64,000 bases of DNA from assembly GCA_964016885.1 (NCBI GenBank), contig OZ024747.1:14198001-14262000 (forward strand), read 5' to 3'. Source of the DNA: Eledone cirrhosa (Eukaryota). The position numbers were made by a program, and so were the translations under genes. Shown here piece after piece: positions 1,203 through 57,567 of this stretch (the first letter of the stretch is position 1; the number at the start of each line of letters is the position of its first letter). The notes beneath the pieces are model-generated. The model made no database searches. It was not told the DNA's origin and was given only the letters and a program-made list of their open reading frames with translations.

Positions 1203-1790
1203 AGAGAAAATTGAGGTTGGTAATGACACATGGAATATATAAGAGACAGAATACTTTTTTGTGAAAAAACATATAATTTTATAAAGTAAGGAAATAATAA
1301 AGGGTATAAAAAATGACCGGTTTCGATGGGTCTGCAAAAGCCATCTTTTCAAATGTTGATTAATATTAAGAAAAATTAATAATAAGAAGAGTTAAAATTT
1401 GAGATTTGAAAATTCAAGTATAAAATTCATTGTGGGATTTCATAGTAGTTTTCATCTTGGTAGCAGCTCGTTGACTGCTGTGTGCCTTTCTGGTAGTGAA
1501 TGAGAAGTTATTTGGGGGTGTGGGTTATTTTATAAAGATGAAAACTACTATGAAATCCCACAATGAATTTTATACTTGAATTTTCAAATCTCAAATTTTA
1601 ACTCTTCTTATTATTAATTTTTCTTAATATTAATCAACATTTGAAAAGATGGCTTTTGCAGACCCATCGAAACCGGTCATTTTTTATACCCTTTATTATT
1701 TCCTTACCTTATAAAATTATATGTTTTTTCACAAAAAAGTATTCTGTCTCTTATATATTCCATGTGCCATTACCAACCTCAATTTTCTCT
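1203..1790. mobile_element. Fold-back element with ~255-bp inverted arms (1203-1458 / 1535-1790), Penelope pLTR-like, between TA tracts
   Basis: Arms are near-perfect reverse complements around a ~76-bp spacer; each carries a degenerate hammerhead (GATGG..CCATC GAAA CCGG TC, 1641-1683 on +). Confidence 0.75.
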
Positions 1791-1814
1791 CTCTCTCTCT
1801 ATATATATAGATGA

Positions 1815-1863
1815 GATTCTACAGGACTAGAACTGTTTCATTCTTTAGAAATCATCAGGAATC
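1815..1863 (-). ncRNA. Type I hammerhead ribozyme motif
   Basis: Minus strand reads GATTC-CTGATGA-tttctaaagaat-GAAA-CAG-ttctagtc-CTG-TA-GAATC: 5-bp stem I, ttc/gaa stem II, ACAG/CTGT stem III, GUA cleavage triplet. Confidence 0.75.
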
Positions 1864-2499
1864 ATCAGGAATATATATATATATATATATATATATATAT
1901 ATGTGTGTGTGTGTGTGCGTGTGTATATGTGTGTGTGTATATATATATATATGTGTGTGTGTATGTGTGTGTGTATATATATATATATGTGTGTGTGTGT
2001 GTGTGTGTGTATGTGTGCGTATGTATATATATATATATATATATATGTGTGTGTGTGTGTGTGTGTGTGTGTATATATATATATATATATATATATATAT
2101 ATATATGAATATATATGTGTGTATGTGTGTGTGAATATATGTATGTGTGCCGCATGCATGTGTGTATATAATTACTATAATTCCATACATTATTTTCGTG
2201 TCGTTCCGGTTAGCCTTATTTTCAATTGAGTGCATCAGTAATAATAGCGAGGACATTCATATAATCTATTTTGATACAATAGCAATATCTCCGCTTGTAT
2301 TCTGCTATTCTTATAGGTTTCTGCTTGCCTCAACATTGTCACTATATTTAATGTTGATGTCAATGAATATTTAAAAACTAAGTTTATATATAGAGTATTA
2401 TATTATTTATTCATAAATTATATATCCTTAAATGAATTTTGAAATTTTGCTCGTAAATATACATTGCAAAATTGCTCTTTTTCGATTTGACTTTATTTT

Positions 2500-3790
2500 T
2501 GTTCAGTTGTATTCATTGACGCGGATGCCTATGGGTTTGTCTGTTCTGCTTAGAACAGCATCAATTGTCGATTTGTTTGTATCCACCGATATTAATACAA
2601 AACCTTGTTAAATCAAGGTATCTTTTGAATACTATTGAAGCAGTAACAGCTGCTTTGATACTGTCAATGCTTTTTTTGTTCTAGTTTAAACCGCTGCCAT
2701 GCACTTGATCTCTGTACAACCTTTCTTTGGAGAGGTATATTTATCGCTGACATATCAGGAATTAACATAGCTAGATATGTAATGATGTAAGAATAGCAGA
2801 GATTTAATCTTAATCTAGTTTTACACCTTTTTTGTTTAGTAGATGCTTAATGTATTTTACTTGCTCAACACACGATTGAGCTTTCCGTGAATTTAGTTTT
2901 AGACCTTTGTCTTTTCATCGTTGTAAAACATGTAGACACTAGCAATGTTTACACACAACATAGACTTAGTGTCCATAACCACAAATATTTCTTCCTCCTA
3001 AAGTCCAAAACACGTGTGTCATAGCGGCGTGAGATACTCCACAAGCTGATTGTACACCGGAAGAAAGTTTATTTGCTACTATCTTTTGACAACTCTCTAG
3101 CAGTAACACTCTTTAGACTGTTTCCTAGGAATAACTATCTATAGACAGCTTTTTAATAGTAACACCTTGAATTGCAGGTAGAGGGTGGTGTTCCCATTAA
3201 ATAGCCTCGTTAAGATCTGACGGAATTAATATATATGCACACTGTATTATGTTCCTTGACAGGAACAACCAGTCACTTGTATCTTTAATATTAATTGTTT
3301 CTACTTTAGGCACAAGGCCAGCAATTACCCAGTGCATTACTGGTATGTTATTTTATCGACCCCGTAAGGATGAAAGGCAAAGTCAACCTCGGCGGGATTT
3401 GAACTCAGATCGTAAAGGGACGTAACTATGTTGAAAAGCATGGCTTCCGACCCTCTACTGATACTGCCAATCCATTAATATAACATAATTTGACACCATG
3501 GATTTCAATTCTTGAGCTACATGATCCTGGAATTTATCTTATGGGGATAACTTTAGGATCTGCAATAATTATATGTTCACCTCCATAAACACCAAAACCA
3601 CCAACGACATCTGAAAGTCTTTCTAATATATTTTCAGAACTTGGTGTTATTTGTGTTGTAAGCTCCTCAAATTTTTGACGCAAGATTTACACAAACTGTT
3701 CCTATAGTCATTGGTTTCTTGAAGAAGATAACTGCATAAAAGAAACTCCAACAAATAAACTATCAAAACGAAACAAGAAAAAAACTGGAA
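2500..3790 (-). mobile_element. Highly degenerate Ty3/Gypsy pol remnant, interrupted by a SINE
   Basis: Manual translation: ENILERLSDVVGGFGVYGGEHIIIADPKVIP (3541-3638, protease-RT linker-like) and VLISVDTNKSTIDAVLSRTDKPIG (2525-2600, RNase H 'VDAS..GIGAVL.Q..KPI'-like), in the correct order. Confidence 0.5.
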
Positions 3791-54291: not shown

Positions 54292-55149
54292 ATATATATA
54301 TATATATATATATATATATATATATATATATATATATATATATATAATTTCCTTTTTCTATTGCTTTGTCAGTCAACTACGTAAATTTAATTTACGGTGG
54401 TGGTCGATTAAGTGGTTGTGGCTTTGGGTGTGTATCTGGGTACGAAACATCACTATCTTCTCTTTGTTATTGTACTTTATTGTATTTCTTTCACAGCATT
54501 GGGTGTGTACATATAGCTGTCTCTATTGTCGATCTGTCAATCTCTCTTAATGCTTACTATTTTATTGCGCATTGAAGTTGTATATATCGTTCATTTATAT
54601 TATACTATGATATATTACATCATAGGGTGATATATATCTATTTGTCTGTCTATGTGTTTTTCTATCCATTTATCTATCTATCCATCTATTTCTGTCTTTC
54701 TCTCCTTCTCTTTCTCTCGTATCTATATATATATATATTTACCTATATATATATATGTGTGTGTGTATGTATATATATATATATATATATATATACATAC
54801 ATACATACATATATATATGTATATATATATATATTTATATATATATATATATATATATATATATATATATATTTTTATATATATATATATATATATATAT
54901 ATATATATATATATATATATATATACATACATATATACATACACACACATATATATATATATATATATATATATATGTGTGTATATATATATATATATAT
55001 ATATATATATATATATATATATTTATGTATATATCTACATATATATATATCTTAAGGTTAGCCATTCTGGTTTGTGCAGTAATGTTGTATATTGTCTTTG
55101 CCCATTTATTCCTGGGAGAGTCACGGGGGCAGCCTCCTTAAACACGCCT

Positions 55150-55705
55150 TCCAGAGGGCTCTGTCAGAAGCAACAGTTTCGAATTGATCCAACGTCTGCT
55201 CCTTGATCTTCTGTCGTCTGGTTTTGCCTGTAACATCTGCCCAGCGATGATATTCTCAGACAGTCTAACAACATGCTCACAATATCGGCTGAATGACCGC
55301 TCAATTCGGTTCTACCTGGAACTACTCTCTGATCCCTGAGCTACACACTTTATCTAGCAGCCTTACTCAGAAGACTCTTCACACAGCGCCACACCGAGCT
55401 ACATTTGTCTGCAGCATTTAACATCTGAAGTAGAAACTGCCGAGCTGAACAGTCTCTATTCCGTTTTAACGTCATTAGTTTGGTCAAGGACTTCTCTAAA
55501 TTTTGCTGCAATAGTATCTGCACACCTGTTTCTGACTTCCTTATCTACCAGCACTACCCATTTTATTCTGCAGATCAAGTTGGACCAGTAAGTTTTGTGG
55601 GCTTTCTTGGCTTTAGGTAGTCTCAGGGTGCAGATAACTAGAGGCCGAATATTTGATAGCTTAGCTCCTCTCTTAACACTGGCATCCAGTTCAGAATCGA
55701 TGATA
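55150..55705 (-). mobile_element. RTE-like LINE fragment (end of APE domain and linker)
   Basis: LDASVKRGAKLSNIRPLVICTLRL resembles RTE 'V.RGA.LSTDH.LV...LRL'. Confidence 0.6.
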
Positions 55706-56745
55706 TAATATAATATAGTACAATATAATATAACATGATATAATATATAATATAGTATAATATAATATAATATAATATAAAATAGTATAATATTACATAA
55801 TATAGTATAATATAACATAATATAATATAATGTAGTATAATATAATTTAATATAATATAATTGTTTCTACTTTAGGCACAAGGCCAGCAATTACCCAGTA
55901 CATTACTGGTACTTTATTTTATCGACCCCGTAAGGATGAAAGGCAAAGTCAACCTCGGCGGGATTTGAACTCAGATCGTAAAGGGACGTAACTATGCTGG
56001 AAAGCATGGCGTCCGACCCTCTACCGATATTTCCAATCCACCAATTTAATATAATATAATATAATATAATATAATGTAATATAATATAATATAATATAAT
56101 ATAATATAATATAATATAATATAATATAATATAATATAACATAACATAATATAGTATAATATAACATGATATAATACAATATAATATAGTATAATATAAT
56201 TTAATATAATATAATATAATATAATATAATATAATATAATGTAATATAATATAATATAATATAGTAGAGTATAATATAATATAATATAGTATAATATAAT
56301 TTAATATAATATAATATAATATAGTATAATATAATTTAATATAATATAATATAATATAGTATAATATAATTTAATATAATATAATATAGTATAATATAAT
56401 ATAATATAATTGTTTCTACTTTAGGTACAAGGCCAGCAATTACCCAGTACATTACTGGTACTTTATTTTTTATCGACCCCGTAAGGATGAAAGGCAAAGT
56501 TAACCTCGGCAGGATTTGAACTCAGACTGTAATATAATATAATATAATGATTTCTAGAATAGACACAAGACCAGTAATTTGCGGGGAAGGGAAATGCGAT
56601 TAAATCGTCCCCAATACGTTACTGGTATTTTATTTTATCGACTCTGTAAGGATGAAAAGCAAAGTTAACCTCGGCGGGATTTGAAATATGATATAATATA
56701 ATATAAAATGATATCACATAATATAGTATAATGTATGATATATAT
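55704..56745. repeat. (AATAT)n pentanucleotide tract holding three SINE insertions (55857-56042, 56407-56530, 56550-56685; all minus strand)
   Basis: Directly visible. Confidence 0.92.
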
Positions 56746-57435
56746 ATATTAAGGAGATATAAATGAGAAATCTTGTGTGTGTTCGGATGGCTTTCCGACC
56801 TCGACAAATATAAGTATCGTATGTAGAAATTATTATTATTTAATGTATATAATAATTATTATTATTTTCGCTTCTGTATCTTTTATATCTCCATAGTTAA
56901 TTCATTCGGCAATGAATGTTTATCATTGACTAACCAATGGTCGCAAATACAGATATAAATACATATATATAGTCTAACAAAGTTCTTTCGTTGCACATCT
57001 GCAACATCATCAGTGGTACTATTATGTTTCCTCCTGTTGTATTGTATGTCTACGCCATTTTTCTACGCCAAATATATATATATATATATATATAATTATA
57101 AGTTTGACAATATATAGTCCTTAGAAATCAACTAGATAAATAATCATTTAAACGAAGCTAGCTAAGTTTAAAATGTAACTTTGAAGAAATAACAGATAAA
57201 TGTTATCGATATTCCTTTATGAGGAACAATCAGCTAAATTTTACCTAGACTTTCCACTTAGTCCGTAGAAATTAACTAGACAAATAATTAATAAAACGGA
57301 GCTCAATCTAAAATGTAAGTTTGAAGAAAAAAATAGATAAACGTTACCTATATATATATATATATATATATATATATATATATATATATATATATATATA
57401 TATATATATATATATATATATATATATATATATAT

Positions 57436-57567
57436 ATTAAAATAGCAGATTAAAGTTTAAGCAAAGAATCGCTGCTTTCACCCTTAACGGGATCTTCTGA
57501 GTTTCAGAGGATCCCGTTAAGGGTGAAAGCACCAATTCTTTGCTTAGATTTAATCTGCTATTTTAAT
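57436..57567. mobile_element. ~130-bp palindrome abutting (TA)n, with hammerhead-like arms
   Basis: Arms fold about CTGAGTTTCAG; right arm GTTT-CAGAGGA-tCCC gttaa GGGt-GAAA-GCA...TGC-TT-AGA. Confidence 0.7.

Follow-up and report, generated by a model that had tools for sequence, protein, structure and literature searches.

The 64,000-nt stretch of Eledone cirrhosa DNA analysed here (contig OZ024747.1, positions 14,198,001 to 14,262,000; hereafter the window) raises the question of what placed so many hammerhead ribozyme motifs beside its TA and CA dinucleotide tracts. A preliminary description had reported ten such motifs as a swarm of unrelated, non-autonomous cassettes lying in the microsatellites, and the sequences it described are present at all ten coordinates. 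Six of the ten are quite probably minimal type-I hammerheads in the 3' untranslated region (3'UTR) or pseudo-long terminal repeat (pLTR) of Penelope-like retrotransposons (PLEs). The other four are likely protein-less or not-yet-linked kin, and the copies take the form of inverted or short end-copies abutting TA/CA tracts. The broader statement, that the motif copies are PLE-type ends, can be made with high confidence. The hammerhead class, the dimer logic and the link to truncated PLE copies are already published (PMC4209133). As first noted, the finding is ordinary; value is added by the statistics given below, and a fixed start base in the short copies offers a testable clue to how PLEs copy themselves.

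Abundance of hammerhead motifs

A strict type-I descriptor (CUGAnGA, stem II of at least 3 bp, GAAA, stem III, UH and stem I of at least 4 bp) finds 5 hammerheads in the window, or 78 per Mb. Shuffled sequence gives 0.03-0.08; over 60 local dinucleotide shuffles the average is 0.08, and no shuffle exceeds 1. A genome sample of 92 stretches of 10 kb at preset round coordinates (920 kb) holds 97 strict matches against 0-2 in 8 shuffles. Two of these stretches are tandem arrays of the 51088 family (families are named after the window position of their motif) with 15 and 19 matches, and the remaining 90 (900 kb) hold 63, equal to 70 per Mb or about 1 per 14 kb. With one array retained, the bootstrap range is 53-142 per Mb. 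Extrapolated to the assembly of 2.996 Gb, the total is about 2x10^5 motifs, a figure weakened by the over-sampling of small chromosomes among the random stretches. Searches of the genome with five window families returned 2,089, 3,837, 1,110, 2,194 and 2,839 first-look candidates; the abundance of the 51088 family derives from the random stretches.

The excess over shuffled sequence, proposed beforehand as a check, is therefore clear, and it refutes the notion that the motifs are chance matches in AT-rich, repeat-rich DNA. That notion has a negligible probability, even though one loose match at 48130-48232 is likely of this kind. Families also recur, and a stem III that is perfectly palindromic, a feature the descriptor does not demand, occurs in 106 of 178 distinct matches. 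The idea of a local swarm does not survive. By resampling, at least 5 matches in 64 kb have a probability of 0.48, so the density of the window is typical of the genome. Its four 10-kb neighbours contain no strict match, and dinucleotide microsatellites make up 21% of the window against 19% of random stretches.

Rfam searches, which are not informative for minimal variants, gave no hammerhead among the best 150 of 390 window matches. In 4 loci, likewise, none reached the gathering score, and a 201-nt stretch around 28880 returned none. The core variants G3-C8, A3-U8 and CGGAnGA had no matches in the samples scanned.

Cores, stems and families at the ten sites

Five of the six sites described as canonical are strict matches, namely 1815-1863(-), 20891-20926(+), 26058-26139(-), 28880-28924(+) and 51088-51130(+). 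In the sixth, 25509-25585(-), 8 nt that other copies of its family have in the 5' strand of stem II are deleted. Among the remaining sites, 1641 has a U3-A8 core (TTGAAAA), found also in its parent element, and a weak stem I; 57500 has a U4A core common to its family; and 17891 carries the aberrant core CCGAAGGA, which is family-wide. A PLE-type core is hence seen at the 5 strict sites, at family level for 25509 and in the U3-A8 form at 1641, with other core changes at 17891 and 57500. All five strict window matches require an offset at the start of stem II, that is, an extra base or mismatch between positions 9 and 10.1.

The claim of palindromic third stems stands for six of the ten sites, where the palindrome is perfect. 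At 28880 the stem (AGGACT) is not palindromic, at 1815 and 57500 it is a long imperfect palindrome, and at 17891 it is one change away from the ACAATTGT of its family. Site 51934 is a decayed copy of the 20891 family (83% over 139 nt), so the word unrelated is wrong for that pair, and the ten sites amount to nine families, each present elsewhere in the genome. Nor do the motifs lie inside TA/CA microsatellites: they adjoin the tracts, and it is the element 3' ends that abut them. Outside the ten sites are five pieces of a tenth family, IRa, which is among the commonest (17032, 18531, 21054, 51424 and 54092), and further motifs at 56975-57020(-) and 61721-61958(-).

Linkage to reverse transcriptase and GIY-YIG elements

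Scans and family searches together support PLE-type minimal type-I hammerheads in multi-copy families. In the 1641, 17891, 20891/51934, 28880, 57500 and IRa families, a reverse transcriptase (RT) followed by a C-terminal GIY-YIG domain lies upstream of the motif. The anticipated link to GIY-YIG/RT open reading frames (ORFs) is hence present in five of the nine listed families plus IRa, and was not found for the 1815, 25509, 26058 and 51088 families. Since these five are truncated 3' ends of RT and GIY-YIG elements, the description of the families as non-autonomous applies at most to part of them; only 26058 and 51088 look ORF-less and retrozyme-like.

The individual links are as follows. The 1641 family belongs to an element (L119) whose ORFs have Pfam GIY-YIG and RVT_1 matches, and the window repeat at 1163-1790 is 97-99% identical to both of its pLTRs. 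The 20891/51934 pair (family A) is the 3'UTR of a decayed RT and GIY-YIG element (L191, L193). In L209, the 28880 family (H5) ends 4.06-kb tandem RT and GIY-YIG units recognised by Pfam, and it is young, with all 40 scored places 99-100% identical. The 17891 family (H7) terminates a 2.6-kb microsatellite-rich 3'UTR that follows a GIY-YIG-type ORF (L215, common to L217), the 57500 family (H9) lies downstream of such an ORF (L105, L034), and IRa is linked to L261/L262 with a tandem spacing of 3,543 bp, its full copies carrying a U3-A8 hammerhead. The ORFs of the 17891, 57500 and IRa families have no Pfam match at E 0.05; they do contain RT and GIY-YIG-type motifs and match the Pfam-positive ORFs by BLASTP at E of about 1e-3 to 1e-6. 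For the L262 ORF, the score to a cluster in which 60% of the members are GIY-YIG is 0.96. These PLE relationships were drawn from pairwise BLASTP and motifs. Further PLE hallmarks seen here are a partial tandem pLTR, an inverted 5' copy and a tail at one end. Genome-wide, a search with the Pfam GIY-YIG model gave 10,596 candidates; among 150 scored, some lie in frames of 600-1,100 residues.

The ORF of the 28880 family contains asparagine-rich low-complexity inserts (L209:2116-3795, L210, L211). Inserts of this kind are described for rotifer PLEs in the available text of PMC3846280.

The features of the window are listed below with their strands; H1, H3, H4 and H6 denote the 1815, 25509, 26058 and 51088 families, and negative positions count from the cleavage site.

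1163..1790, long tailed arm (-) and short arm (+): head-to-head inverted pair of pLTR ends of an RT and GIY-YIG PLE, 97-99% to the L119 pLTRs
1636..1684 (+): hammerhead with U3-A8 core, stem III ACCGGT and weak stem I; second copy at 1309-1357 (-)
1805..1863 (-): short H1 copy with hammerhead 1815-1863, its stem III a long imperfect palindrome; 5' end at the point common to the family, without a linked ORF
17032..17225: IRa hairpin retaining the 3' portion of a U3-A8 hammerhead, each arm beginning some 41 nt upstream of the cleavage site
17476..18035: inverted pair of PLE 3'UTR ends, H7, core CCGAAGGA at 17891-17979(+) and 17520-17610(-); in L215/L217 the family directly adjoins a GIY-YIG-type ORF
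18531..18759: fragments of an IRa-related subfamily
20784..21005 (+): 5'-truncated 3' end of PLE family A, hammerhead 20891-20926, stem III ACGT (L191, L193)
21054..21290: IRa hairpin copy, both arms starting at -60
25365..25612 (-): H3 copy with tail, hammerhead 25509-25585 with 8-nt stem II deletion, no ORF linked
26009..26545 (-): H4, ORF-less unit of about 527 bp with hammerhead 26058-26139 and short inverted arm 26490-26545
28783..29150 (+): young PLE 3' end, H5, hammerhead 28880-28924 with non-palindromic stem III; tail and short inverted arm, copies 99-100% identical
51054..51407 (+): one partial H6 unit, hammerhead 51088-51130
51424..51528 (-): IRa tail fragment
51575..52040 (+): internally deleted family A copy joining the element 5' region to its 3' end, decayed hammerhead 51934-51967
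54092..54291: IRa hairpin copy, both arms starting at -42
56865..57062 (-): copy of an H5-like family with its core and stem II at 56975-57020; stem I is unclosed in the window copy
57430..57668: H9 PLE hairpin, U4A hammerhead 57500-57550(+) with the second arm at 57455-57505(-); in L105/L034 the family directly adjoins a GIY-YIG-type ORF
61721..61958 (-): decayed 3' end from a further PLE family, carrying a U3-A8 hammerhead, 73% to L101

ORF-less families and ribozyme satellites

The two retrozyme-like families are built from short units. The 26058 family has an ORF-less unit of about 527 bp (509-530 bp) that forms dimers and trimers (L218, L219). The unit of the 51088 family measures 422-460 bp, is likewise ORF-less, contains an internal TA/TG tract and forms long tandem arrays (L255, L279, L112). 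These are the only families with the tandem structure of a retrozyme, in which at least two ORF-less units each carry a type-I hammerhead. In L255 (G000:C28:110000001-110010000) and L279 (G000:C22:12000001-12010000), the entire 10 kb consists of hammerhead unit arrays of 422 bp and about 460 bp, respectively, which are two subfamilies of one ribozyme satellite.

Could all of the families instead be independent, non-autonomous retrozymes, their unit-length, hammerhead-cut RNAs circularised and re-inserted in trans by a PLE protein? The 51088 arrays, which fill 2 of the 92 random stretches, and the 26058 dimers and trimers would suit such a scheme, no ORF having been seen in either, and a 2026 preprint argues in its available text that animal retrozymes derive from PLEs (10.64898/2026.07.22.740005). 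It is nevertheless quite improbable for the whole set, given the families that run upstream into RT and GIY-YIG ORFs and the main families in which 5' ends do not pile up at the cleavage site.

It counts against the PLE reading that no ORF was found in the examined copies of the 1815, 25509, 26058 and 51088 families, of which few are long. In its favour, among 12 variants of H6, 97% of stem cells are paired (score 0.191, reached in 0 of 500 shuffles), yet only 1 of the 12 pairs shows a two-sided change, and the rows were pre-selected by a descriptor that demands pairing.

Element ends and dinucleotide tracts

Of 238 copies from nine families, 164 have a dinucleotide tract no more than 12 nt from the element 3' end (48/67, 40/50, 30/35, 10/15, 7/9, 7/10, 17/35, 3/13 and 2/4), a count that leaves out copies from loci fetched for the same family. 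The corresponding figures are 944 of 9,124 for background positions and 20 of 108 for a SINE-like repeat, and the suggestion that the elements target TA/CA tracts is thereby upheld. When ends are aligned with longer natural copies, and short and long ends are treated separately, the native element sequence beyond the end starts with TA or AT at 9 of 12 ends. Of the other three, one reads TTTTAC, one runs straight into the tract and one has a motif that was not found. Termination at native TA/AT motifs fits priming on tracts that already existed.

The preliminary description also suggested that the families may seed the TA expansions of the genome. On such a view, microsatellites would travel in the RNA, expand after insertion and so build up the dinucleotide load. 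Elements do move microsatellite-like DNA, since several PLE 3'UTRs and the 51088 unit contain internal TA/TG/CA runs. Copying of an element includes its long degenerate TA/TG or CA runs, as in the L119 arms, which are 85-94% alike across them. About 2 kb of such runs lie in the 3'UTR of the 17891 family, the H6 units have an internal TA run of variable length, and tandem copies of family A have one between the pLTR end and the element 5' region. As a source of the tracts, however, the elements are unlikely. Their ends coincide with fixed native TA/AT motifs, in keeping with priming on tracts already present, and an unrelated LINE fragment (53715-54090) adjoins a TA tract in the same way. A microsatellite bias of PLE insertion is also on record in the available text of PMC8557442. 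A search for empty sites over 412 insertions yielded only two candidates, both nested at the TA flanks of other elements. Where target-site duplications were sought, the element ends ran into microsatellites.

At L141, L012, L122 and L205, different PLE ends are nested at each other's TA flanks and form composite clusters.

A fixed 5' start in short copies

Truncated arms tend to begin at one point. After deduplication, and with both arms of a hairpin counted, those starting within a single 12-nt window number 40 of 56 in IRa, 32 of 37 in H1, 11 of 18 in the L101 family and 13 of 31 in H9, and the peak holds whether the copy joins an inverted arm, a tract or other DNA. Genome-wide counts of exact IRa 21-mers are 1,908 at -138, 2,175 at -88 and 36,203 at -35 from the cleavage site, thus flat upstream and followed by a 17-fold step. 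A TATA-like box precedes the peak base, an A, by 29-30 nt in IRa, H1 and the L101 family, a spacing found at 44 of 3,586 reference positions (1.2%). This rule was formed on IRa and H1 and recorded before the L101 family was examined. In IRa, H1 and H9 the peak base also fits the initiator pattern YYANWYY. The 28880 family has 15 ends upstream of its cleavage site, of which 8 lie between -112 and -92, beside the word AAAATGGCG, which we take to be a YY1-type promoter motif.

Taken together, the balance tips slightly towards the fixed 5' point being the transcription start of the element. Several observations pull the other way. The 17-fold step could be inflated if subfamilies differ upstream. 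A prediction for the AGTACT family (peak near -76) met only 3 truncated copies, at -72, -61 and -1. The peaks of H9 and the ATGCGCAT family have no TATA box, and no sharp peak 30 nt after a TATA box was seen in A, H4, H5, H7 or two ATATATAT families. Moreover, the IRa, H1 and H9 peaks coincide with a pyrimidine-rich AG that resembles a splice acceptor.

This last feature lends itself to a different account, in which RT stalls at the ribozyme structure or a splice acceptor produces the pile-up, and hairpins arise by fold-back self-priming. Besides the pyrimidine-rich AG, the peaks fall on the 5' strand of stem I (H1, H9) or at the base of a hairpin in loop II (IRa). In the available texts, junction palindromes of rotifer PLEs have been taken as self-priming (PMC3846280), and the end of an intron in Drosophila Penelope maps to helix I (PMC4209133). 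On the other hand, the L101-family peak is 73 nt before the cleavage site, upstream of stem I, and still 30 nt after a TATA box, and no common first exon was seen upstream of the peaks. With the hairpin geometry described below, these points make the stalling account somewhat unlikely.

If cutting occurred in vivo, 5' ends would be expected at the cleavage site. No such ends were observed for the IRa, H1, H9, A and H5 families, and the small number near +1 to +12 in H4 (3 of 7) and in one further family is not enough to interpret.

Head-to-head hairpins

Among the first 100 IRa matches listed, 56 form 28 head-to-head pairs with gaps of 0-29 nt. Across IRa, H1 and H9, 49 of 51 deduplicated pairs consist of one tail-bearing and one short arm (21/21, 13/13 and 15/17 by set). 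Distinct junctions number 21, 12 and 15, and the hairpins are therefore separate events. In 16 of 49 hairpins, the short arm extends at least 8 nt further upstream than the long arm, and the reverse holds in 6. The former class cannot come from a single folded-back cDNA, because a short first arm has no tail to pass on and a long first arm limits the reach of the second. Two cDNAs, each from its own start site, can yield such hairpins.

Classification of the hairpins as miniature inverted-repeat transposable elements (MITEs) was considered and rejected: the outer ends of the arms are unequal, the junctions vary and the arms derive from PLE 3' ends. In cephalopod repeat libraries, such hairpins could be mis-annotated as MITEs or SINEs.

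A proposed replication cycle

The anatomy, the ORF links, the end positions, the pile-up and the arm pairing described above are observed; the transcription start and the two-cDNA mechanism are inferred from them, as any cleavage would be. The likely cycle would run as follows. A promoter in the upstream pLTR would make an RNA starting near the hammerhead, and the element protein would nick both strands of an AT-rich tract. Reverse transcription would be primed at two internal TA-marked sites downstream of the hammerhead, giving a short end and a tail end. Where priming takes place on the copy near the RNA 5' end, the cDNA would run off at the transcription start after 60-160 nt, and two cDNAs, one per strand and per site, would be joined head to head into a hairpin.

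We give the full two-cDNA model a probability of about 45%. It would make the short copies tens of thousands of fossils of the PLE cycle: a dimeric protein primes at two fixed internal sites, one per target strand, and each cDNA ends, in the manner of a strong-stop product, by run-off at the transcription start in the pLTR before the two are joined. The ribozyme would start at the first transcribed base in some families, and transcription would start inside it in IRa, so that the 5' half-ribozyme would be cut only by pairing with a complete 3' copy. By-products would be the roughly 2x10^5 hammerheads, among the densest loads reported, and the satellite arrays. Copies that begin at the transcription start have lost the TATA box, and most of them are therefore likely dead ends.

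The ribozyme itself would dimerise through its palindromic stem III when folding, and slow or protein-dependent cutting is predicted. In the available texts, PLE hammerheads are described as cutting weakly, as dimers or with protein (PMC4209133; PMC11167929). Cofolding of 11 window motifs gave a double-hammerhead fold as the minimum-energy dimer for 1815 and 26058. The copies retain the uncut motif and would have been made from uncut RNA. It counts against this scheme that the minimum-energy fold is not a hammerhead in 9 of 11 monomers and 9 of 11 dimers.

Comparison with known systems

A close parallel is the lizard (Anolis) PLE Poseidon, studied in vitro, where both strands are cut and extended and two internal start sites bound the tail; its protein is predicted to dimerise, its hammerhead is assisted by protein and its template is uncut RNA (available text of PMC11167929). 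The two start sites bounding the tail, extension of both strands, AT-rich targets and an uncut template are shared with the cycle proposed here, and the two-cDNA hairpins agree with what that element does in vitro. Run-off at the RNA 5' end is added here as the likely cause of the fixed start. The same text contains no discussion of run-off at the transcription start or of obligatory long-plus-short pairing. One discrepancy weighs against the model: that study found no homology of the start site to the target, whereas the ends here show TA microhomology.

The PLE hammerheads of PMC4209133, as far as its available text goes, share with those described here the core, the extra base after A9, a palindromic helix III and the U3-A8 variant. 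Also common to both are a large number of unrelated families in one genome, a predominance of single motifs derived from truncated PLEs, and close pairs on opposite strands. That work counts 2,000-9,000 motifs per genome against the 2x10^5 extrapolated here, with different descriptors, and its text does not describe the 16-19-nt stem III, the U4A and CCGAAGGA cores or the fixed 5' pile-up. Literature on dimer-cleaving PLE hammerhead variants, summarised in the available text of PMC6765202, may already list U4A-type variants or cephalopod counts.

According to the available text of PMC8557442, PMC3846280 and PMC2377424, Penelope/Poseidon, Neptune and Nematis likewise have RT followed by GIY-YIG, partial tandems and an inverted 5'-truncated copy, and endonuclease-positive PLEs resemble those here in a tail at one end, a microsatellite bias and a promoter in the pLTR. 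A TATA box plus initiator is known in the pLTR of one rotifer PLE from the same sources. Tails are 40-90 nt here against 30-40 nt in the known endonuclease-positive PLEs, and, unlike in those, one family has about 17 short end-only copies for every longer one. Compared with non-LTR retrozymes (PMC7229834; Li 2026 preprint, both in their available text), the 51088 and 26058 families share ORF-less tandem units with one type-I hammerhead each, but the units are 422-530 bp rather than about 300 bp and the hammerheads are PLE-type rather than canonical.

In the open literature searched, neither hammerheads in octopus genomes nor a 5' pile-up at a PLE start site were found, and the same holds for the motif scale and end-mapping pattern. 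The repeat annotation of Octopus vulgaris lists Penelope-like families, with ribozymes unmentioned in the available text (PMC13282606). The tandem/inverted insertion mode and microsatellite preference of PLEs are a named open question in the available text of PMC8557442. From the fixed 5' start, the near-invariant arm pairing and the TA microhomology follow sharp predictions, by which a single in vitro study can be tied to genomes. The near-intact young tandem element L209 and the natural cores (U3-A8, U4A and CCGAAGGA) are ready test material.

Other repeats of the window

Several further repeats of the window end at TA tracts. A multi-copy family at 21320-21720 (+) has PLE-like inverted arms and TA flanks and keeps CUGAUGA, with no GAAA half in the examined loci (33 matches); it possibly carries a half-core of the kind reported for Naiad elements, and a similar piece lies at 25145-25240. 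Another multi-copy repeat end, at 61177-61416, forms an inverted pair around a TA tract (20 matches). At 18907-19087, two repeat 3' ends with the tail GAAAGTCGATCG end at TA tracts; other copies have a tRNA-like upstream part, and the repeat is a SINE rather than a hammerhead element.

The window also contains a LINE with an open ORF of 1,108 residues at 10158-13484 (-), whose RT matches Pfam RVT_1 at E 1e-29 and whose C-terminal region presumably resembles a restriction-like endonuclease of the R4/Dong type, and a broken relative at 5389-8546 (-). A full-length match to U6 snRNA with several changes (78.5 bits) at 39052-39158 (-) is probably a retrocopy. Finally, a SINE-like repeat of about 200 bp occurs both in tandem and dispersed at 393-943, 3300-4450, 37400-38360 and 61980-62660, with ATT-type rather than TA flanks, and at 37589-37987 a 19-bp segment of this repeat has been amplified 21 times.

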